A stretch of DNA of 7,658 nt, from the IMG/VR virus record IMGVR_UViG_2548876852_000010; one strand, given 5' to 3'. Made by a program: the position numbers and the translations under genes. The stretch is from a virus. Taxonomy: Duplodnaviria > Heunggongvirae > Uroviricota > Caudoviricetes. The number at the start of each line of letters is the position of its first letter. Position 1 is the stretch's first letter. Below the pieces are notes generated by a model. It was not told where the DNA came from, made no database searches, and was given only the letters and a program-made list of their open reading frames with translations. Shown piece after piece: positions 1 through 7,526 of the stretch.

Positions 1-42
1 GATGACGATCAGGGCGATTAACATCGCCTTTTGCTGCTTCAT
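1..42 (-). CDS. hok: Hok/Gef-family type I toxin, first 14 codons only (CDS continues past the window start)
   Basis: Reverse complement of 1..42 is ATG AAG CAG CAA AAG GCG ATG TTA ATC GCC CTG ATC GTC ATC = MKQQKAMLIALIVI, the characteristic N-terminus and start of the single TM helix of Hok/Gef/RelF-type toxins. It is preceded by the typical leader ...gaaaggcaaggagaagcaggct ATG with SD GGAG. Confidence 0.75.
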   Translation of the reverse strand, partial: MKQQKAMLIALIVI

Positions 43-99
43 AGCCTGCTTCTCCTTGCCTTTCGGCACGTAAGAGGCTAACCTAGATTTGCCGTTCAT
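1..99 (-). CDS. mok: mok-like upstream reading frame, in frame with and overlapping hok (translational coupler), partial
   Basis: ATG at 99..97 (minus) opens MNGKSRLASYVPKGKEKQA, which runs in frame into the hok ATG at 42. This is the same arrangement as chromosomal mok/hok pairs, where mok is an N-terminal extension. Confidence 0.45.
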   Translation of the reverse strand, partial: MNGKSRLASYVPKGKEKQAMKQQKAMLIALIVI

Positions 100-170
100 A
101 GATTGAGCCTCAGATTAATGTTAAGCGTCTTGCAGGACGCGTAATGTTAACTGGGGCTTTTCTCTATCTG
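91..170 (+). ncRNA. sok: Candidate Sok-like antisense RNA complementary to the mok translation-initiation region
   Basis: Plus-strand -35 TTGCCT (56..61), 17-bp spacer, -10 TAACCT (79..84), giving a start near 91. The transcript would be antisense to the mok start at 97..99. It contains an inner hairpin GCGTC-ttgcag-GACGC and an outer CCTCAG/CTGGGG stem followed by CTTTTCTC. Boundaries are approximate. Confidence 0.3.
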
Positions 171-217
171 CCTTTGGTGTTCATGCCTGAGACAGATAGC
201 CTCAAGCACCCGCAGCC

Positions 218-246: not shown

Positions 247-654
247 TATGAAATCAGTCAGAAAGGCGATCCATAAGAACAACAGCAAGGCAATAAATTG
301 CCATTACAGCAGCAATAGCCAGCGCACATTTGAGAACCAGCACCACAACCTCCTGTATTGGACGTACACCAGTCCTGATAAATATGAGGCTGTCTCGTCA
401 GTGATTCAATACAACTATTGGGTATAGTTTCTGTGATTTTGTTCTGTAGAAATGGAACATAATAACCTGTCACCACCAGCACTTCTTTAAATACGCCAAG
501 TCCGACGCAAGCTAACCTTCTAGCCCGCTTTGAGCGAAGAACGGACTGAGTAATTCAGGCCGTTAGCGACACTATGACATCATTAGCAACCAACTAGGAG
601 TTGGTAATAGATGAGTTAATTAATTGATTAAAAACCGACGATTTTACTAGATTA

Positions 655-684
655 CGGGAAGAAGAAAGGCCGCTGGTACGGCCT
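655..684 (-). terminator. Intrinsic terminator downstream of the small ORF 710..907
   Basis: Minus-strand hairpin AGGCCG-taccag-CGGCCT (667..684) followed by TTTCTTCTTCCC, sitting 26 nt past the ORF stop. Confidence 0.4.
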
Positions 685-709
685 CCCAGAGACTAGTCTA
701 TTGTTATGC

Positions 710-907
710 TTAGAAACGCTTTTCTATCTCTTTTTCTCTTTCGTTTATTGCATCGTCAATGATTTTTTTTGCTGAATTAATTTGTGGTGTTTTTTCTGGT
801 AATACATCTTCAAGATCTTTGGCAATTTTCTTTAATTTATCGATTTCTTTAGTTAAATCAGTTACAGATTTATCCGCTATTGACTTTGTCATTTTTCCAT
901 ATTCCAT
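710..907 (-). CDS. Small hypothetical protein (60-65 aa), lysine/glutamate-rich and predicted helical, in an AT-rich block
   Basis: Open frame with ATG at 907 (alternative ATG at 892 with a weak GGA upstream), TAA at 710..712 and its own hairpin terminator. No strong SD and no recognisable family, so the coding status is uncertain. Confidence 0.35.
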   Translation of the reverse strand: MEYGKMTKSIADKSVTDLTKEIDKLKKIAKDLEDVLPEKTPQINSAKKIIDDAINEREKEIEKRF

Positions 908-1080
908 TCAATTTATTTATCAATCAGTTACCCGTAAACCTTATCATGGATTCCAATTATCGACAGCTGGGATTTTTACTTTCTTGATCTGCCCCAGGCG
1001 AATGACATATCCCCATTAACCAATGTCCGCTCCTAGCACTTAGTAGACATTAATAGATTGTAAGCGTTCCCGTCATGTAG

Positions 1081-1461
1081 CGGTCACCGATTGGTGATGA
1101 ATTGAAGCGGATCATTGATGAAAGTCGCAATAACGTGGCCAGCCCATTTATCGTTCACCAGATCCCGGAACGGCAGGTTAAACGCAGCAAAGAAGTTTCT
1201 CATCCCACTCAAGTTGCACCAGACTATTTGAGTCGGTCGTTTTCAGCTACGCGTGACAAGCTGGGTTTATATGACAAACGGCCGATGGATGAAAGGCCAA
1301 CCTTTCACGAAATTCGCGCCTTAGCAGCACATCTTTTTGATCAGCAGGGCATCGATCCACAAGGACGAATGGCACACAGCGATGCGAAATCAACTAAAAT
1401 CTACACGCAAAACCATATCGACTGGGTTGTAGTTCCACATGGAGAAATTAAAGCCAGCTAG
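1081..1461 (+). pseudogene. int: 5'-truncated lambda-family tyrosine integrase (C-terminal catalytic fragment only)
   Basis: The frame opens right after an in-frame TAG at 1078..1080, and the first start-like codon is TTG at 1102. The translation ends ...PTFHEIRALAAHLFDQQGIDPQGRMAHSDAKSTKIYTQNHIDWVVVPHGEIKAS, mirroring the lambda Int C-terminus (PTFHELRSLSARLY...HLLGH...Y...IEIK), including the catalytic Tyr region. No integrase-like sequence is found in any frame upstream of 1080. Confidence 0.7.
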
Positions 1462-1555
1462 CACCAAGTAAGGCATAGAATTTTATTAACCAAGGAGCAT
1501 ATGACCAGTAATTAATTCTTACCGGAAAGTTAGCCCTGCTAAAATTAATATTAAC

Positions 1556-1591
1556 AAATAAAAAAATAGGGGCAAATATTTATATTTGCCC
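1556..1591 (-). terminator. Rho-independent terminator closing the SMODS-SLATT operon
   Basis: Perfect 10-bp inverted repeat GGGCAAATAT (1570..1579) / ATATTTGCCC (1582..1591) with a 2-nt loop. On the minus strand it is followed by C-TATTTTTTTATTT (complement of 1556..1569), 12 nt after the SLATT stop at 1603. Confidence 0.6.
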
Positions 1592-1602
1592 TCGCAACAT
1601 AT

Positions 1603-2184
1603 TTATCTTCTTTTCAGTTCCTTGGGAAGAAAAGCATCTATTTCTTCTTCAGAAAATGTTAAATCTTCTTTGTTTTTTAATGCGTCCTGTGCTTTTTTAT
1701 AAGCTTCAAATGTTGTACTAGGAGAGCCTGAATACACTGAATGTAAACTCTCGAGTAACGAATCCCGCTCTGACTGCAATTGCTCGATTGGTTTTTCACC
1801 CATTGCTAAGTCTGTAAGCAATGATAAATACTTTTCTCGGATTAACCAGATCTCATTTGCAGCCTGCTTATGTTTTTGCGCCAACTCACCAAGGTCATAA
1901 TCTTTGGTATAAGCGTTAAGAATGAGAAGCAGTGTTGAAACAACAATCCCAACCCCCGTGCCTACTTCACCCGCGCCGAAAAAAGTTGCTAGAAAGCCTC
2001 CAGTAGTTAAGGCGGAGAGAATTATTTGCCAAAACTTTATAGAAGATAGTCGAGATAGGAGAATGTCTGAGCATTTTTCATGCGTCTTATGTGAGTAAAC
2101 GACCCGACCATAACACTCTCTGATCTGCCCTTCTAAAACCCTTCTAGATTCAGGTGTATCCTTAGTCTGGAAATGTTGATCCAT
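1603..2184 (-). CDS. SLATT-like 2-TM membrane effector (predicted partner of the upstream nucleotidyltransferase)
   Basis: The ORF spans 1603..2241. The preferred start is ATG 2184..2182, preceded by GGGAG (aaatggcGGGAGattt ATG), whereas the ATG at 2241 has no SD. Two adjacent hydrophobic helices (FWQIILSALTTGGFLATFF and GVGIVVSTLLLILNAY) are flanked by amphipathic helices with conserved-looking H/Y/W positions (VVYSHKTHEK ... AQKHKQAANEIWLIREKYL), which is SLATT-like architecture. It overlaps the upstream gene by 23 nt. Confidence 0.8.
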   Translation of the reverse strand: MDQHFQTKDTPESRRVLEGQIRECYGRVVYSHKTHEKCSDILLSRLSSIKFWQIILSALTTGGFLATFFGAGEVGTGVGIVVSTLLLILNAYTKDYDLGELAQKHKQAANEIWLIREKYLSLLTDLAMGEKPIEQLQSERDSLLESLHSVYSGSPSTTFEAYKKAQDALKNKEDLTFSEEEIDAFLPKELKRR

Positions 2185-3043
2185 AAATCTCCCGCCATTT
2201 TTGCTTAGCCGACCATTCGCGTTTTGGGGTCGCCATTTCATGCTCTATAGCTTCGAGTGAAATGTTATAGCACCGTTTTGCTTTATATTGGAAAAGCCCT
2301 TTACCATAGACATACTGACCACTTCCTGGCGCTTTCCAATACTCCTTACTCGTATCTTGATCAGCCATCCATTTGAAGAAATCACGACTCATGAAATCGT
2401 AGTAAAGATACGACTTATCTCTATGCGCCCAATTTTCAATGAATTGATACGCAAGCGTATCAATGAGTAAACCACTTATAGGTACATCCCATTTACGCTT
2501 CCAAGCTCTTGCCATTCTACAAAGTTGCACCAAATTGTTATTGGTAATGTTATTTCTTAACCTCATTGCAGAAATTTCTGGCTTTGGATTTGTAATCCTC
2601 CAACGGCCACCACCGTTCGCATCAGGAAATGTGTAACTATCACTAACATTGAGGAAAGCTGGAACGACTTCAAATGTAATTCCATCATTGAACGGTACAA
2701 GGATCACTTGACCGTCACCTCTAATACTAGTGGTAGCATAGGTTTTTTCAATAGATCTCTTAACCGCTTGAAGCAATGCTGACTGCCCATTTCCTAAGTA
2801 GCTATTGTATTTTTGATACTCGGAATATGGTAGCTGAAAAATCATATCCAGATCGCTCAAGCCTTGCGTAGCTGTGTTCCGACCATATGATCCAACGTAG
2901 AGACTATGAGAAGTATCAGAACTGCTATCCCAAAAATCCGTATTTAAACGCTTCGTTATATTCCTATATCTAGTTGAAATTGTTCCACCATCTTTTACAG
3001 TAAGATTGGAGCAAAATCCGCAAAACCACTCAGCTAAACCCAT
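2162..3043 (-). CDS. SMODS / CD-NTase-like nucleotidyltransferase (cGAS/DncV-like, Pol-beta fold)
   Basis: The track ORF 2162..3049 begins at TTG. The first ATG is 3043..3041, preceded by AAGGA. Motif GSYGRNTATQGLSDLD (nt 2846..2893) fits the G[SG]-x(9-13)-D-h-D nucleotidyltransferase signature, followed by a FEVVPAF strand carrying the likely third acidic residue. The N-terminus (AEWF..F...L.L...RY..I..RLN) is typical of SMODS domains. Stop TAA at 2162..2164. Confidence 0.8.
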   Translation of the reverse strand: MGLAEWFCGFCSNLTVKDGGTISTRYRNITKRLNTDFWDSSSDTSHSLYVGSYGRNTATQGLSDLDMIFQLPYSEYQKYNSYLGNGQSALLQAVKRSIEKTYATTSIRGDGQVILVPFNDGITFEVVPAFLNVSDSYTFPDANGGGRWRITNPKPEISAMRLRNNITNNNLVQLCRMARAWKRKWDVPISGLLIDTLAYQFIENWAHRDKSYLYYDFMSRDFFKWMADQDTSKEYWKAPGSGQYVYGKGLFQYKAKRCYNISLEAIEHEMATPKREWSAKQKWREIYGSTFPD

Positions 3044-3185
3044 GCTCAATTCCTTTTCTAAAATCTAATGAAAAATTCAAGGGCGCATGTTCCATGCATC
3101 ATTGATAACTTTTTTCAGTCAGCTAGAGCAACATAATTGATACTAACTAGCTGTTTCTTCAAGTGAGTAACCTACTTTAGCATCA

Positions 3186-3222
3186 AGGTATTATACCTAC
3201 CAAGCATGGGGAGAAACCACCA
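3186..3222 (-). promoter_or_regulatory. Candidate promoter of the SMODS-SLATT operon
   Basis: Perfect minus-strand -10 TATAAT (3195..3190), but only a weak -35 (GGTTTC, 17 bp upstream). This implies a leader of about 140 nt. The call is tentative. Confidence 0.25.
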
Positions 3223-3357
3223 CTTAAGCCATTGAAGTATATAGAGCAGATTTTGTTGAAAAAGCACTGTTTGTCTATACATATGAATATGTGCTTTTAA
3301 CCAGCAATAGCGCGGCTCTCAGCGTTTTACAAGCAGTGTCATGGGGTGTCGGGGATC

Positions 3358-3385
3358 GGAAGTTCAAATCCTCTCGTGCGACCCA
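3358..3385 (+). other. Orphan tRNA 3'-end fragment (T-arm + acceptor 3' strand + discriminator + CCA), possible att core or integration scar
   Basis: GGAAG-TTCAAAT-CCTCT (T-stem/loop with one mismatch), then CGTGCGA-C-CCA at 3375..3385. No complementary 5' acceptor strand (TCGCACG) or D-arm exists within 100 nt upstream. The T-arm resembles a tRNA-Pro-like GGAGG/CCTCT arm. Confidence 0.35.
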
Positions 3386-3397
3386 AAAGATTATATA

Positions 3398-3424
3398 AAC
3401 CAGCCTGTTATTGCTGGTTTTTTA
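3398..3424. terminator. Hairpin terminator, usable on either strand
   Basis: 7-bp stem AACCAGC (3398..3404) / GCTGGTT (3413..3419) with an 8-nt loop. On the plus strand it is followed by TTTTTT, on the minus strand by TATATAATCTTTT. It sits about 150 nt past the minus-strand replication-module ORF ending at 3577 and 13 nt past the tRNA-like CCA on the plus strand. Confidence 0.5.
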
Positions 3425-3576
3425 TGCCTACCTTCCTGGTAGGGAAGCTATGGGGAATTACTGGGGAATCCCCCCCTTTACCTGCTCCCATTAAACTAAC
3501 ATAGCACGATGTAAGCAACTTCCGCTTCTGGCACAAAGCGGACAACCACGCTAGCTCTACCCTGTGCCACAAAATG

Positions 3577-4035
3577 TCAATTTACATCTGAACTAATGCA
3601 CTTTAATCTCGTCACTTCAAAAAAATACCGAACATCCCCCTGATAAAACGACAATATCCGCTGCATAACTTCGCTTTTACGACACTCAGTACAAATTATA
3701 TTATGACGCCTGTCGTAACGACGTATTTCTCCATCAGGTAATGACCAGATAAGGTCCGGATCAACCGCAGATGGTTTCTTCAGCTTTGCCCTTGAGAGCT
3801 TTTTACGGGCATTTTGCCAGTCCTTACGCGCCTGTTCAGACGGGAATAACCCGTAACCAGAGTTGTATACATCGCCACTGGCAACCAGCTCTCTGGCCAG
3901 AACGCTCATCAGATATCTTGTTGCCCCAGTTTTAGCTTCCAGTTGTCGTAACGTCTCGCGCCCACTCTGGCGTACGAGTTCAAGAACCTGCCCTTTAATT
4001 TTTTCCCGCTCTTCTTGTGTAAAAACTTTTGCCAC
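3577..4035 (-). CDS. Hypothetical protein (152 aa), last gene of the early-right/replication operon
   Basis: GTG start at 4035 preceded by a strong SD (AGGAGG gctt GTG). The N-terminus looks like a helix-turn-helix or winged helix (TGATRYLMSVLARELVASGDVY), and the C-terminal part has a single CxxC (ICTECRK). Family not recognised. Confidence 0.55.
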   Translation of the reverse strand: MAKVFTQEEREKIKGQVLELVRQSGRETLRQLEAKTGATRYLMSVLARELVASGDVYNSGYGLFPSEQARKDWQNARKKLSRAKLKKPSAVDPDLIWSLPDGEIRRYDRRHNIICTECRKSEVMQRILSFYQGDVRYFFEVTRLKCISSDVN

Positions 4036-4075: not shown

Positions 4076-5146
4076 TTACCCCCTGAAGCCCGGTGGAATT
4101 TCGGTATCCGGTTCAGAAATATGATTCACACAACGCTGGTTGTTCGTACCGCTTACCGGGAGCAACCAGGGGTTTTCAAAATTCCGGTCCGGTCCAAAAA
4201 ACGTCGTCGCTCGCTGAACAAATTCCGTTCCCGTTTTCCCGGTAGCCGCCAGGTATCTTGCGTAACGCCTCACACCATCCAGCATGGCCTCTGGTGGCAC
4301 CCCCTCGCGTAATCTGGCCTTCCAGGCACTGAAAGCGGATTTCTTCGGGTTTGCCCCAGCACGCAACGGGTATTCCCGCCAGACCTGTTCGAACACATCC
4401 GGATAATCTACTCGCCCCACAGGCTGCCCGGTGTTTTCCGGGACTACCCGATCGGCTTCCCGCTGAATGGCGGAATCGGCTTCAGGCTGCTGCAGTTGGT
4501 GTGATTGCTCCGGCCTTGCGGTCATCACCTGCTGCACAGCGCCCGAATCGGCTTTCAGCGCATACGCTGAATCGGCTTCCGGTGTCGTGCCTGCTGGCTG
4601 ACCAGGATTGACGGTCTGAACATCCCCTGCCTGGTTCGTGGCGTTTTTTACGCCATGGACCATAGTGTTTTGATCTTCTTGATCTGTATCTTTATCTGTA
4701 TCTTTATCTGTCGTGACTCGTCGTGACATGTGCGTGACATTTCGTGACGCGCCGTGACAATCGCCATTTTGTTCCCGCTTTCTTTCCCTCTCTCGCTGCG
4801 CCCTCTTGCGCTCTGCAGGAGATTTTGCGGTTTGCGAAATATTGCCGTTGTCCTCTTTAAGCACCTGGCGTTTTTCCCATCCAGTGATTAAATCACCATC
4901 AAGTACCCGCCCCTGCATCGTCTGCAAAATTGAATCAATTACCTCTTCTGTCACGTCGAGCGCACTTGCCAAATCTTCTGTCGTGACATCAATGTGACCT
5001 CGCGTGACATTTCGTGACGCGCTCACCAGGAGGTGGATATACACTGCCATCACTGTTGCAATTGGCTGCCCTGACACCCTGGCAATTGTTCGCCACTTAG
5101 GGTCATTTGGCATGTCATGCCATAATCTGAGCCAAGCGTTAGCCAT
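4076..5146 (-). CDS. Prophage replication initiation protein (replisome-organiser-like) with internal iterons
   Basis: The track ORF begins at GTG 5152, but the first ATG at 5146 is preceded by GAGGTG. N-terminus MANAWLRLWHDMPNDPKWRTIARV...YIHLL and a conserved-looking C-terminal block (YPLRAGANPKKSAFSAWKARL...GVRRYARYLAATGKTGTEFVQRATTFFGPD) are typical of lambdoid or cryptic-prophage replication initiators. It sits downstream of the cro/cII analogues, as lambda O does, and contains a low-complexity acidic linker (TDKDTDKDTDQEDQ). Confidence 0.7.
   Translation of the reverse strand: MANAWLRLWHDMPNDPKWRTIARVSGQPIATVMAVYIHLLVSASRNVTRGHIDVTTEDLASALDVTEEVIDSILQTMQGRVLDGDLITGWEKRQVLKEDNGNISQTAKSPAERKRAQRERERKREQNGDCHGASRNVTHMSRRVTTDKDTDKDTDQEDQNTMVHGVKNATNQAGDVQTVNPGQPAGTTPEADSAYALKADSGAVQQVMTARPEQSHQLQQPEADSAIQREADRVVPENTGQPVGRVDYPDVFEQVWREYPLRAGANPKKSAFSAWKARLREGVPPEAMLDGVRRYARYLAATGKTGTEFVQRATTFFGPDRNFENPWLLPVSGTNNQRCVNHISEPDTEIPPGFRG
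4687..4710. repeat. Tandem direct repeat, 12-bp unit TATCTTTATCTG x2 (hexamer TATCT[TG] x4)
   Basis: Exact tandem duplication read directly from the sequence. It encodes the TDKDTDKD linker and abuts iteron cluster 1. Confidence 0.85.
4712..4758. repeat. Iteron cluster 1: five CGTGAC repeats phased at 10-11 bp
   Basis: CGTGAC at 4712, 4722, 4733, 4743 and 4753, about one helical turn apart, inside the replication-initiator CDS. Confidence 0.8.
4982..5018. repeat. Iteron cluster 2: four (C/T)GTGAC repeats phased at 10-11 bp
   Basis: CGTGAC at 4982, 5003 and 5013 and TGTGAC at 4993. The 21-bp string GCGTGACATTTCGTGACGCGC is shared exactly with cluster 1. Confidence 0.8.
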
Positions 5147-5217: not shown

Positions 5218-5643
5218 TCAATGTACTGCCACAGCATTTCCTGCCGGGCCACCACGGTTCATCTGATTGAAACCGGCGATTGCCACTGCGACAAAATCAT
5301 CAGCGTCTCTCACCAGTCGCTCCCGCGTCTCCACCAGCTCCCGAAAATAAGCTGAACTGTGGCTGCGCATTCTGGCCACCAGCAAAGGTGGCATTGCCTT
5401 TTCGATCGCTGGTAACAACGCCTGAATTTTTTCAACTGCATCAGGGGTATCTTTCTCTATCCAGCGGAAAATTTTCTGGGTATTGCGAGCCAGGGCTTCC
5501 GGATGGCTGTCGTCGTACAGTTCAGGAAACGTCATACCCAACTCAAAATAAGCCTGGGTTATTCCAGCTGCCGGAACTTTTTCGCCATCAGGACGCGCCC
5601 AGGCATTCATCGCCATGCGGATGTGTTCATGCTTGATTTTCAT
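5218..5643 (-). CDS. YdaT-family protein (CII-like regulator of cryptic and lambdoid prophages)
   Basis: The best start is the internal ATG at 5643, preceded by AAGGGGGG. The product begins MKIKHEHI... and ends ...VAVH, at about 141 aa, matching the length, termini and position (after the cro analogue, before the replication gene) of the Rac YdaT family as I recall it. The upstream extension of the track ORF has no SD. Confidence 0.65.
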   Translation of the reverse strand: MKIKHEHIRMAMNAWARPDGEKVPAAGITQAYFELGMTFPELYDDSHPEALARNTQKIFRWIEKDTPDAVEKIQALLPAIEKAMPPLLVARMRSHSSAYFRELVETRERLVRDADDFVAVAIAGFNQMNRGGPAGNAVAVH

Positions 5644-5869
5644 GAATCCCCCCTTGGTTAGAAGGCGGATTATGATCAGAACCGGGAATGACAACCGTCG
5701 GTATGTGTAACTCATATTTGAGCGCCCCGGCAGTGACTGCCTGAATTAGCAACGCCCATTTCCACGGAACCTCTTCCCCCCACATGCTGACTGTGGTTTT
5801 TGACGTTCCTAGAGCTGCGGCTGTTTTAACAACTCCGCCAAAATAGCCTAATACTTCTGATTTTTTCAT
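5627..5869 (-). CDS. Cro/YdaS-like small HTH regulator
   Basis: The best start is ATG at 5869, preceded by GGAG 7 nt upstream. HTH signature YFGGVVKTAAALGTSKTTVSMW. It is divergent from the CI-like gene and overlaps the YdaT-like start by 17 nt. Confidence 0.65.
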   Translation of the reverse strand: MKKSEVLGYFGGVVKTAAALGTSKTTVSMWGEEVPWKWALLIQAVTAGALKYELHIPTVVIPGSDHNPPSNQGGIHENQA

Positions 5870-5897
5870 GAGTCGCTCCATAAAACTGAACGCCAAA

Positions 5898-5927
5898 AGT
5901 TTAATAATCAAAACCAAAGAAAGTCAA
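5898..5927 (-). promoter_or_regulatory. Candidate PR-like promoter for the cro/YdaS - YdaT - rep operon
   Basis: On the minus strand: -35 TTGACT (5927..5922), 18-bp spacer, -10 TAAACT (5903..5898). The -10 hexamer is identical to that of the PL-like promoter at 6707..6712. Confidence 0.35.
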
Positions 5928-5942
5928 GAAACAAAACCATCT

Positions 5943-5962
5943 GTGTTTTAAAATCAAAACAT
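5943..5962. promoter_or_regulatory. Operator-like 20-bp palindrome GTGTTTT-aaaatc-AAAACAT overlapping the CI start codon
   Basis: 7-bp inverted arms with a 6-bp spacer. The architecture is the same as the palindrome at 6665..6684, with arms differing at one position. It overlaps a -10-like TAAAAT (5949..5954) placed 6 nt before the SD-less CI ATG. Confidence 0.45.
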
Positions 5963-6599
5963 GAGCAAGCAAACAATATCTGAACGCATAACCCAACGTA
6001 TGCATGCGCTAAACCTGAAAGGCAAAGACCTTGTCAATGCCACTGGCGCATCAAAAGGCTCCGTAAGTCAATGGATGAACGGTGGAGGAGCGCCGTCCTC
6101 GCGTTACATAAGTTCACTGGCAAAAATATTGAAAGTAAACGAAAATTGGCTTCTTAATGGAGGAGAGTTAAATACAGGTGATTCGCTTGATCTATCTTTA
6201 CCGCCGATAAAAACGGTTCCGCTACTATCACTTCAGCAGGCAGCAAGCTGGAGTGATTATATGAAAAATTCCTCAATAACCTCTTGTGTGCAGCTTGTCG
6301 GAGAAATCCCGGCCAATACCTTTGCAGTTGTTCTAGAGAGTGACAGTATGTCAACATCTGGTGGGGGAGTTTCCATCCCAAATGGTTCAACAGTTTTTGT
6401 TGATCCCAATCGAACCGTACAACCAGGAAATATTGTCCTTGCCTTACCCAAAGGGACCACAACACCTGTCATTCGTAAACTGGAGATAGAAGGGCCGGAT
6501 ATTCTTTTAGTCCCCACGAATCCTCGCTACCCTTCAATTATGCTGGATGATCTATCTTGCATATTGGGCGTATGCTTTAAAATTCAACAAGATATTTAA
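5961..6599 (+). CDS. CI-like phage repressor (N-terminal HTH + C-terminal S24 LexA-like autopeptidase domain)
   Basis: ATG at 5961. The HTH region is LKGKDLVNATGASKGSVSQWMNG. The C-terminal domain has the S24 Ser/Lys dyad context (ESDSMS ... VIRKL) and collinear similarity to the lambda CI C-terminus (VFVDPNRTVQPGNIVLALP ... LLVPTNPRYPSIMLDD versus LVDPEQAVEPGDFCIARL ... FLQPLNPQYPMIPCNE). No SD, so possibly leaderless like lambda cI from PRM. Confidence 0.88.
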   Translation: MSKQTISERITQRMHALNLKGKDLVNATGASKGSVSQWMNGGGAPSSRYISSLAKILKVNENWLLNGGELNTGDSLDLSLPPIKTVPLLSLQQAASWSDYMKNSSITSCVQLVGEIPANTFAVVLESDSMSTSGGGVSIPNGSTVFVDPNRTVQPGNIVLALPKGTTTPVIRKLEIEGPDILLVPTNPRYPSIMLDDLSCILGVCFKIQQDI

Positions 6600-6664: not shown

Positions 6665-6684
6665 ATGTTTTGATAAAAAAACAT
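6665..6684. promoter_or_regulatory. Operator-like 20-bp palindrome ATGTTTT-gataaa-AAAACAT overlapping the -35 of the PL-like promoter
   Basis: Perfect 7-bp inverted repeat with a 6-bp spacer. Its last base is the first T of TTGACC. Confidence 0.45.
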
Positions 6685-7510: not shown

Positions 7511-7526
7511 CCCTGAAAAGTCAGGG
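7511..7526 (+). other. Small hairpin CCCTGA-aaag-TCAGGG, reminiscent of a lambda boxB element
   Basis: 6-bp stem with a 4-nt purine loop, on the same strand and downstream of the PL-like promoter. No convincing boxA was found nearby. Confidence 0.2.

Follow-up and report, generated by a model that had tools for sequence, protein, structure and literature searches.

The SMODS-SLATT operon of this prophage probably represents a type I CBASS carried on a moron-type cassette that derives from a temperate phage's int-att end, and that is expressed from a modest promoter of its own with passive co-transcription from pR. The window, i.e., the whole stretch of 7,658 nt that was analysed, matches E. 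coli 2013C-4991 exactly and lies within a full lambdoid prophage, in which Q, lysis and head genes follow downstream on the same strand. This prophage looks partly decayed (frameshifted integrase; IS421 between hokD and the ydfU-like gene), which leaves its induction behaviour uncertain. The preliminary description had placed the cro-like, YdaT-like, replication-initiator and 152-aa (DUF977) genes on the minus strand together with SMODS-SLATT; these strands and identities were upheld (early-right genes: Pfam and PHROGs; defence pair: Pfam and PADLOC; Table 1). It had also put the defence operon after the end of the early-right operon, which proved incorrect: hokD/sok, a ydfU-like gene, rusA and the Q antiterminator come next on the same strand. 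DUF977 is the final backbone gene ahead of a variable slot, and hokD/sok is the backbone element downstream of it. The immunity region is set by the cI-like repressor gene, whose product combines HTH_3 with an S24 LexA-type self-cleaving peptidase (Pfam). The divergent pR and pRM would be expected at 5870-5960, and a repeat search returned operator-like repeats near this gene at 5899-5976 and 6665-6683; iteron-like repeats lie inside the replication initiator gene (4720-4758 and 4980-5018).

Table 1. Features of the window, from the repressor gene to the hokD/sok module.
Feature	Position	Strand	Evidence
cI-like repressor	5961..6599	+	Pfam Peptidase_S24 1.2e-13, HTH_3 1.7e-4; PHROG transcriptional repressor
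P22_Cro, Cro-like (gene no. 1 of the early-right operon)	5627..5869	-	Pfam P22_Cro 1.8e-15; RefSeq CDS
YdaT / cII-like	5218..5643	-	Pfam YdaT_toxin 8e-10; PHROG 163 cII-like activator 3.7e-45
Replication initiator / replisome organizer	4076..5146	-	PHROG 3729, 5.5e-258
DUF977 (LygF / Ren-like exclusion protein)	3577..4035	-	Pfam DUF977 2.6e-29; PHROG 142 Ren-like 4e-45
Backbone spacer downstream of DUF977	3480..3576	-	BLAST boundaries; conserved in cassette-less relatives
Hairpin + T-run, proL terminator homologue	3397..3423	+	alignment; fold energies; terminator scores
tRNA-Pro 3' fragment, 51 nt, slightly decayed	3338..3388	+	92% identical to proL in ~5,400 genomes
att-site phage arm	3205..3337	none	alignment; IHF-consensus-like motif + CAAACAGTGC block
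SMODS leader, AT-rich	3044..3204	-	weak sigma-70 candidates; AAGGAA ribosome-binding site
SMODS CD-NTase (CBASS cyclase)	2162..3043	-	Pfam SMODS 2e-50; PADLOC PDLC00786, 477 bits
SLATT_4 two-transmembrane effector	1603..2184	-	Pfam SLATT_4 6e-74; PADLOC 2TM effector PDLC00696, 281 bits
Terminator-like hairpin after SLATT	1570..1591	-	9-bp stem then CTATTTTTTT; consensus scan
Lambda-type tyrosine integrase, C-terminal fragment, pseudogene	1062..1461	+	Pfam Phage_integrase; RefSeq 'recombinase, missing N-terminus'
Mobile cassette, 3.0-kb	528..3539	none	BLAST boundaries; 99.5% identical at two different prophage locations
sok antisense RNA, hokD/sok module	37..211	-	Rfam RF01794, 110 bits, E 4.8e-25; hokD annotated

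Both ORFs of the defence pair are intact with full-length domain matches (the SMODS Pfam match covers positions 1-164 of 164), the nucleotidyltransferase motif GS...DLD of SMODS is preserved, with GSYGRNTATQGLSDLD seen in the translation, and since the SLATT start overlaps the SMODS end by 23 nt the two genes form one operon. Neither Cap2/Cap3 (type II) nor HORMA/TRIP13 (type III) genes were found within the cassette by Pfam, RefSeq annotation or PADLOC; apart from the pair, it contains only the integrase fragment and one 60-aa ORF without a family match. Judged by this gene content, a CD-NTase with an adjacent effector and no ancillary genes, the operon is a predicted type I CBASS, and we infer that it is active in defence. 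The nearest solved cyclases in the PDB are CdnC/CdnD (E only 7e-9). Pointing to autonomy of the gene pair, SMODS adjoins SLATT in 72 of 80 species from many phyla; a rough ORF-based count gave a median ORF-free gap of ~116 nt upstream of SMODS across species, and the upstream ORF, likewise by an ORF-based count, was on the same strand in 53 of 67 cross-species loci, which is about the expectation from general operon co-orientation. Among sequenced coliphages in the phage collection this cyclase was not found, the only phage matches being in Listeria phages.

The operon resides on a cassette of lower GC content than the prophage backbone (40% vs 50%), present in 47 E. coli genomes: at this slot in 12, and downstream of the tail-fibre assembly gene in the other 35 (after tfa, beside bio/ybhB). 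Compared with relatives lacking the cassette, the variable slot occupies ~538-3479 (BLAST boundaries 537/541 and 3475/3480 vs UTI89 and NR3838); 3480-3539 is also present in the tail-fibre context of the cassette. The integrase fragment is convergent with SLATT and shares 87% amino acid identity with the full-length 392-aa integrase of Enterobacter locus L015. In Enterobacter RIT637 the order is host mqo/eco/MFS genes, an att-like region, SMODS, SLATT and a convergent integrase (392 aa, intact, with an Arm-DNA-binding domain), so that SMODS-SLATT in the Enterobacter prophage has the att site on one side and an intact integrase on the other. A comparable arrangement of E. coli 23CRST036 reads int, cargo, int fragment, cargo, attR(proL), beside yejO. 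The int-att position next to host DNA is the apparent native position of the cassette, which is ordinary mobile cargo, transplanted as an autonomous unit. Its source is probably the int-att end of a temperate phage integrating into tRNA-Pro, of which it retains the truncated lambda-type integrase on one side and the att arm, tRNA-Pro 3' core and tRNA terminator on the other; recombination would have brought it into a Qin/Tritos-like lambdoid prophage, at the variable slot that has the Ren-like DUF977 gene on one side and hokD/sok on the other. This slot is the head of the nin-region equivalent and is upstream of Q. The locus illustrates how defence cassettes move between lambdoid hotspots (int-att end, b region, nin-region slot) and take att scars along.

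The frameshifted integrase and the downstream IS421 of the prophage, the integrase pseudogene and decayed tRNA fragment of the cassette, and an IS1203 that interrupts SMODS in one carrier are also what one would see if, in this strain, the cassette were a decaying passenger, a neutral remnant in a defective prophage with no regulated function. We consider this very improbable, given two intact ORFs with full-length domain matches and the catalytic motif, 99.3-100% identity of the cassette across the 47 genomes, and 59-86% conservation of the SMODS and SLATT proteins across phyla.

The same slot holds different cargo in relatives: two unrelated genes in UTI89; an FRG/PDC-S15 gene on the opposite strand in NR3838 and phage Tritos; a regulator and an acetyltransferase in phage Evi; four small genes in phage 640R1; and relBE, flxA and ydfV in K-12 Qin. 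Slot cargo in related phages occurs in both orientations, and co-orientation of cargo by chance is a 1-in-2 event. Orientation statistics on the 47 copies were set aside, as these represent only two insertion contexts and allow no meaningful test.

The two operons had been described as separated only by one hairpin terminator at 3398..3424. The hairpin exists (3397-3420, T-run to 3423), but what separates the operons is a 533-nt untranslated spacer, in which ~100 nt from the prophage backbone are followed by the att scar and the AT-rich leader, and the hairpin did not hold up as a terminator of minus-strand transcription. On a d'Aubenton-Carafa-type score it reached +12 on the plus strand, which has the uninterrupted T-run, and -4.8 on the minus strand, which is sub-threshold because the A-tract has decayed (tails: minus strand UUUAUAUAAUCUUUU; plus strand UUUUUUAU). 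The early-right transcript at 3398-3424 lacks a stable stem that runs straight into a U-rich tract, and a consensus terminator scanner called the hairpin on neither strand. It lies directly 3' of the tRNA-Pro fragment and aligns with the proL terminator. Since it follows a plus-strand tRNA-Pro 3' fragment, the hairpin is an att-site scar, inherited with the att/tRNA-Pro region and facing the other way, rather than a regulatory device of the prophage; weak minus-strand termination may still occur there. For presumed terminator hairpins, this locus argues that both strand and ancestry need to be checked.

The tRNA-Pro fragment is an att core scar and not a functional tRNA: ARAGORN found no tRNA in the spacer, a complete cloverleaf being absent and only the 3' 51 nt aligning with proL, and Rfam at E<=1 gave no known RNA other than sok at the window edge, ruling out a functional tRNA or known RNA there. 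Within the spacer it is the att arm that different elements share, including other tRNA-Pro-associated prophage ends that bear different cargo (3205-3425 vs Enterobacter L015: 79%, BLAST), and a role in recombination, rather than a promoter, accounts for this conservation. The backbone segment at 3480..3576 folds into a hairpin at ~3520-3545 without a U-tract, and none of its minus-strand terminator scores exceeded -15. Overall, terminator scores revealed no convincing minus-strand intrinsic terminator between DUF977 and SMODS. A strong C-rich/G-poor Rho-loading zone was not found between these genes either, the C-over-G excess being weak; some Rho-dependent termination in the spacer may occur.

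These measurements bear on the possibility that the cassette is tightly insulated, such that a bidirectional hairpin and/or Rho acting on the 533-nt spacer stops pR transcripts and the CBASS is independent of prophage state. The native proL hairpin is fully bidirectional on the same type of score (+30 and +37 on its two strands), the hairpin in Enterobacter separates SMODS from a co-directional host MFS gene, whose transcript it presumably ends there, and the copy in the window keeps UUU then AUAUAAUCUUUU on the minus strand; the long untranslated stretch is moreover a potential Rho substrate, with a C/G ratio of 1.2-1.5 at 3290-3470. We nevertheless regard insulation as rather unlikely, in view of the sub-threshold minus-strand score, a C content that never exceeds 31%, and the situation in the related live phages Tritos and Evi, in which strong minus-strand terminators lie on the pR-to-Q path (the family terminator on this early path includes AACCCGCTTCGGCGGGTT), suggesting that early transcription resists terminators or else that Q has a promoter of its own.

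A PWM scan of the minus strand at 3040-3600 gave no sigma-70 promoter above shuffled sequence (best score in the leader 8.8; median best of shuffled sequences 8.5), the candidates being TTGGTA-18-TGcTAAAGT at 3203..3174 and TATAAT at 3195..3190. A further program-predicted candidate, TAGACA-16-CAAAAT, sits in the conserved att arm and was likewise not taken as a clear promoter. From context, we infer that the cassette carries its own promoter for SMODS-SLATT. No copy of the oR/oL (cI/Cro) operator-like repeats was found in 3040-3577, and the only LexA-like motif was CTGT-N8-ACAT at 3267-3282, which lacks the invariant G and belongs to the conserved att arm; direct control of SMODS by the repressor or LexA was rejected on these grounds.

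The lack of a clear sigma-70 promoter in the leader and the weak minus-strand barrier are compatible with a different arrangement, in which the own promoter is absent or negligible and the CBASS depends chiefly on read-through out of phage operons, is turned on by induction and has been selected as such. Both E. coli sites are indeed co-directional with an upstream operon that lambdoid phages antiterminate (early-right here; late tail-fibre in the 35 genomes), and there is precedent for DNA-damage-coupled CBASS expression in CapH/CapP, CapW and CapK/CapS. Against this, the two insertion contexts behind the 47 copies give co-orientation no statistical weight, slot cargo elsewhere occurs in either orientation, the DNA upstream of the int-att position is host chromosome, and neither an N-like antiterminator nor a known RNA element was found. 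Defence expressed after the host commits to lysis would not protect the lysogen, and type I CBASS reportedly reacts to late events of virion assembly; a boost during the prophage's own lytic cycle would carry a risk of self-abortion. We hold such dependence on phage transcripts to be improbable. It is equally doubtful that co-directional placement after two lysogen-silent, lytically antiterminated operons was selected so that a burst of CBASS upon induction primes the cell to resist superinfecting phages or satellites, or curbs the burst of the prophage itself.

The slot between DUF977 and hokD lies inside the pR-to-Q unit and not after it, and, if pR drives Q here as it does in lambda, pR transcription would cross the slot to reach Q. 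Gene order shows a co-directional pR-to-Q path with terminators en route: there are strong backbone terminators between hokD and the ydfU-like gene and after Q, and minus-strand terminators lie at L001 18470..18453 and 21591..21570. In a search for an early antiterminator, Pfam and PHROGs gave no match to an N-like family and Rfam no such element (put-like RNA); one boxB-like hairpin, at 7511-7526, lacks counterparts in the related loci. Since the spacer has no convincing minus-strand terminator and no strong Rho zone and the slot is on the pR-to-Q path, some read-through from pR into SMODS-SLATT on induction is plausible, as is generic for a lambdoid moron. In the lysogen, cI would hold pR off and the operon would be read from its modest promoter in the AT-rich leader; upon SOS cleavage of cI, pR transcripts running past DUF977 would meet only the wrong-way hairpin, and would probably enter SMODS-SLATT in part and stop, at least partly, after SLATT unless antiterminated. 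The hairpin after SLATT, which is convergent with the integrase fragment and ends in a T7 run, was called by the consensus scan yet scored -8.7 under a stricter formula. Co-transcription would then be a passive result of position in the delayed-early unit and not dedicated regulation. Of the earlier proposal that a leaky or antiterminated terminator couples the defence pair to prophage state, the structural premise of an open read-through path survives, on firmer ground than had been supposed, with the slot upstream of Q; a dedicated coupling of abortive-infection readiness to the state of the prophage finds no support, given the reversed att scar, the mobile cassette, the mixed orientation of cargo and the lack of operators.

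Among known elements, K-12 Qin has the same backbone (dicB/ydfA-D, repressor, cro-like gene, hokD, ydfU, Q) and the same variable position upstream of hokD, but its cargo differs and its replication genes are deleted. Lambdoid morons (HK97 gp15 and the lambda bor/lom type; the Juhala/Hendrix concept) are likewise present or absent among collinear relatives, of lower GC content, hairpin-flanked, of host-benefit (defence) function and located inside a phage operon. Morons are defined by an own promoter and terminator and by expression from repressed prophages (PMC3594210). The cassette is inserted with respect to collinear relatives, deviates in GC content (0.40 vs 0.50) and has its own terminator after SLATT in the 1591..1570 hairpin, weaker on the stricter score; in contrast to morons, its own promoter is not demonstrable from sequence, and in contrast to a minimal promoter-gene-terminator moron it includes an att scar together with part of an integrase gene and is therefore a transplanted piece of a prophage end. 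In the lambda ren-tR2-nin segment (pR delayed-early, N-antiterminated), as in the present prophage, accessory genes and terminators come after a Ren-like gene and before Q. There are two differences: neither an N homologue nor a nut/boxB element or put-like RNA was identified here, and the hairpin upstream of the cargo is, by its alignment, an imported, reversed tRNA-Pro terminator and not a backbone terminator.

Defence by E. coli CD-NTase-SLATT type I CBASS operons has been demonstrated (10.1101/2023.05.21.541620). Like the EcCdnF04-SLATT6 type, the present locus consists of two genes, a CD-NTase and a two-transmembrane SLATT effector, without Cap2/Cap3 or HORMA/TRIP13; its effector falls in Pfam SLATT_4, the tested type being SLATT6. 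CapH/CapP, CapW and CapK/CapS are known DNA-damage-responsive CBASS regulators and embody the same idea, that CBASS expression rises when a prophage is induced or DNA is damaged; genes for regulators of this kind are absent from the flanks of the operon, and coupling here would be only via transcriptional read-through. If pR read-through does boost the CBASS, how such a prophage avoids triggering its own system becomes the question, and read-through would stand beside CapH/CapP-type regulators as a promoter-free coupling of abortive infection to prophage state.

All 7,658 bases of the window are identical to positions 1,251,461-1,259,118 of the E. coli 2013C-4991 chromosome, where they belong to a complete lambdoid prophage of the Qin/Tritos type. 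The gene identities of the preliminary description were all confirmed (Pfam, PHROGs, PADLOC), and the co-directional layout of the early-right genes and SMODS-SLATT on the minus strand is real. In transcriptional order this strand carries cro, a ydaT/cII-like gene, the replication initiator, DUF977 (annotated LygF or Ren-like in phages), SMODS and SLATT, a small ORF, hokD/sok, an IS421 copy, a ydfU-like gene, rusA, the Q antiterminator gene and tRNAs, then lysis, terminase and head genes; a plus-strand integrase fragment lies between SLATT and the small ORF. On the right side, in window orientation, the plus strand encodes a frameshifted integrase, an exonuclease, ydfD and dicB, a gene of unknown function, DUF1391 (ydfA-like) and a cI-like repressor. 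Since this repressor combines HTH and S24 self-cleaving peptidase domains, the prophage is SOS-inducible in principle. The RefSeq annotation of the repressor starts only at 6261 (S24 domain, 113 aa); the full ORF gains HTH_3 and matches the 200-aa cI proteins of related phages. The iteron-like repeats inside the replication initiator gene are reminiscent of the internal origin of lambda O.

Features of the window, with positions and supporting matches
Feature	Position	Strand	Remark
hokD start	1-42		within hokD/sok module, window left edge
hokD/sok module	1-211		type I toxin-antitoxin
sok RNA	37-211	minus	Rfam, 110 bits
Cassette	528-3539
Integrase C-terminal fragment	1062-1461	plus	lambda-type
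Hairpin after SLATT	1591..1570	minus	T7 run
SLATT	1603-2184	minus	PADLOC 2TM effector model, 281 bits
SMODS	2162-3043	minus	PADLOC CBASS cyclase model, end to end, 477 bits
Sigma-70 candidate, TTGGTA-18-TGcTAAAGT	3203..3174	minus	upstream of SMODS
Sigma-70 candidate, lone TATAAT	3195..3190	minus	upstream of SMODS
att arm	3205-3337
CTGT-N8-ACAT motif	3267-3282		part of att arm
tRNA-Pro (proL) 3' part	3338-3388	plus	92% identity
Hairpin after tRNA-Pro	3397-3423
Direct repeats, iteron-like, GTGAC-rich	4720-4758 + 4980-5018; 4451-4486 + 4547-4582		within replication initiator gene
Candidate oR	5899-5976		cro-cI intergenic, GTTTTAAAATCAAAAC repeats
Repressor ORF	5961-6599	plus	HTH + S24
Candidate oL	6665-6683		downstream of repressor gene, GTTTTAAAATCAAAAC repeats
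boxB-like hairpin	7511-7526		CCCTGAAAAGTCAGGG

SMODS and SLATT share a 23-nt overlap and together constitute a type I CBASS; defence has been demonstrated for E. coli CD-NTase-SLATT type I operons (10.1101/2023.05.21.541620). In 72 of 80 species, spread over many phyla, SMODS and SLATT remain together in a compact arrangement, with an upstream gap that is usually at least 100 nt by a rough ORF-based count. Homologues from distant phyla, including Chloroflexota, Planctomycetota, Poribacteria, Nitrospirota and cyanobacteria (loci L014-L093, genome contig matches), are 59-86% identical in SMODS and mostly 50-92% in SLATT, pointing either to unusually strong conservation for defence genes or to recent transfer on a very broad scale.

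The preliminary description had the two operons separated by a single terminator, a reading that does not hold. In virtually every E. coli genome, a search with the spacer matched the sequence before this hairpin to the 3' portion of proL, and in some genomes the match extends through the hairpin. Alignment with proL placed the tRNA 3' end on the plus strand and the hairpin at the position of the proL terminator, its stem diverged with pairing kept. The native proL hairpin is flanked on each side by A- and T-runs, and a d'Aubenton-Carafa-type discriminant gives it +30 in one direction and +37 in the other; the window hairpin scores +12 on the plus strand and a sub-threshold -4.8 on the minus strand, owing to its UUUAUAUAAUC tail there, and was called on neither strand by a consensus terminator scanner. 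Between DUF977 and SMODS the minus strand offers no other candidate intrinsic terminator. The hairpin is thus genuine in its ancestry, yet what it represents is an att-site scar facing away from the early-right operon.

This scar is part of the same cassette as the defence genes. Pairwise BLAST revealed that in relatives lacking SMODS-SLATT (UTI89, NR3838) collinearity with the window stops at 537/541 and resumes at 3475/3480, and that strains carrying SMODS-SLATT elsewhere have in common, at 99.5% identity, a 3.0-kb mobile unit (the cassette) comprising a 60-aa ORF, the integrase fragment, the hairpin after SLATT, SLATT and SMODS, an AT-rich leader, the att arm, the tRNA-Pro core and its hairpin. 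Among 5,426 complete E. coli genomes, 47 carry the cassette, at the DUF977 junction in 12 (one of which, AUSMDU00014361, has SMODS disrupted by an IS1203 copy; L095 1838-3051) and immediately after a tail-fibre assembly gene in 35, in the b-region of prophages adjoining bio/ybhB. Where such a unit belongs, at an int-att position, is seen at two loci: the proL prophage end of E. coli 23CRST036 (int, DUF2971, int fragment, two genes, attR with the tRNA-Pro fragment, yejO), and Enterobacter sp. RIT637, where host mqo, eco and an MFS gene are followed by an att-like region (79% identity with window 3205-3425), then by SMODS, SLATT and, in convergent orientation, an intact integrase (392 aa, lambda Arm-DNA-binding domain). 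The att arm, with an IHF-consensus-like ATCAAnnnnTTA motif and a CAAACAGTGC block, is conserved among these tRNA-Pro elements despite different cargo (compared with L015 5403-5619, from Enterobacter, and L006 6001-6181); recombination function accounts for this conservation, and a promoter is not needed to explain it. Both ends of the cassette share sequence with backbones that lack it (~10-14 bp on the left, 528-541; ~60 bp on the right, 3475-3539), which suggests that it moved between the tail-fibre and DUF977 sites by recombination at short shared sequences.

The slot between DUF977 and hokD, bordered downstream by the conserved hokD/sok, holds different cargo among related prophages and isolated phages: two unknown genes in UTI89 and four small genes in phage 640R1 (minus strand), an FRG/PDC-S15 gene in NR3838 and phage Tritos (plus), a regulator (minus) and an acetyltransferase (plus) in phage Evi, and relBE (minus) with flxA and ydfV (plus) in K-12 Qin. 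Other cargo at equivalent positions (L006 4553-5693, 3113-4069; L002 3660-5639) is made up of two-gene units that PADLOC does not match, a DUF2971/PDC-S31 gene and an FRG/PDC-S15 gene, all possible candidates for uncharacterised defence. Q lies on the same strand 3-5 kb beyond the slot in all elements compared, and by position the slot is equivalent to the lambda ren-tR2-nin region, which places the defence operon within the pR-to-Q unit rather than beyond it.

Nothing in the sequence would clearly bar pR transcription from entering SMODS-SLATT, and on structural grounds the suggested read-through is plausible. The DUF977-SMODS spacer has 533 untranslated nt with only a mild C-over-G excess. 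Transcripts would have to pass the hairpin after SLATT before reaching hokD and the ydfU-like gene, between which lies a strong backbone minus-strand terminator (AACCCGCTTCGGCGGGTT then a T-run), with another after Q. Both are also conserved in phages Evi and Tritos (GC-rich terminators of this strand: L001, the window's own locus, 18453-18470 and 15737-15756; L013 4801-4818; L012 2937-2952). Such conservation implies an early antitermination mechanism or a separate Q promoter. Searches found no N-like protein (Pfam, PHROGs) and no known antitermination RNA (Rfam). The boxB-like hairpin, downstream of the leftward early genes, resembles lambda boxB (GCCCTGAAAAAGGGC) and is absent from the other fetched loci.

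Context argues for a promoter of SMODS-SLATT's own, since the int-att position has host chromosome upstream, beyond a terminator, the upstream phage operon is silent in the lysogen at both E. coli positions, the pair stays compact behind its gap across species, and expression from a repressed prophage is part of the definition of a moron (PMC3594210). The sequence itself is ambiguous, with even the highest-scoring sigma-70 candidates failing to exceed the best sites of shuffled sequence.

A dedicated link between prophage state and abortive-infection readiness found no support: the SMODS leader has no oR/oL-type operator repeat, and the lone LexA-like motif, CTGT-N8-ACAT, is imperfect and part of the att arm. 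The L006 counterpart of this motif is a perfect CTGT-N8-ACAG. The arrangement is ordinary cargo in a nin-type hotspot of a lambdoid prophage, and its analysis yielded two useful by-products, the corrected strand and ancestry of the hairpin and the reconstruction of cassette movement. As type I CBASS reportedly responds to late virion-assembly events, over-expression while the prophage is itself in lytic growth could backfire, which counts against a selected boost. Coupling of defence or cargo gene expression to induction or DNA damage is an established concept in other systems; stx shares its transcripts with late genes (PMC8065619), phi80 Tai/Ati genes are coordinated by the late operon (PMC11364771), and CBASS expression is controlled by CapH/CapP, CapW and CapK/CapS.
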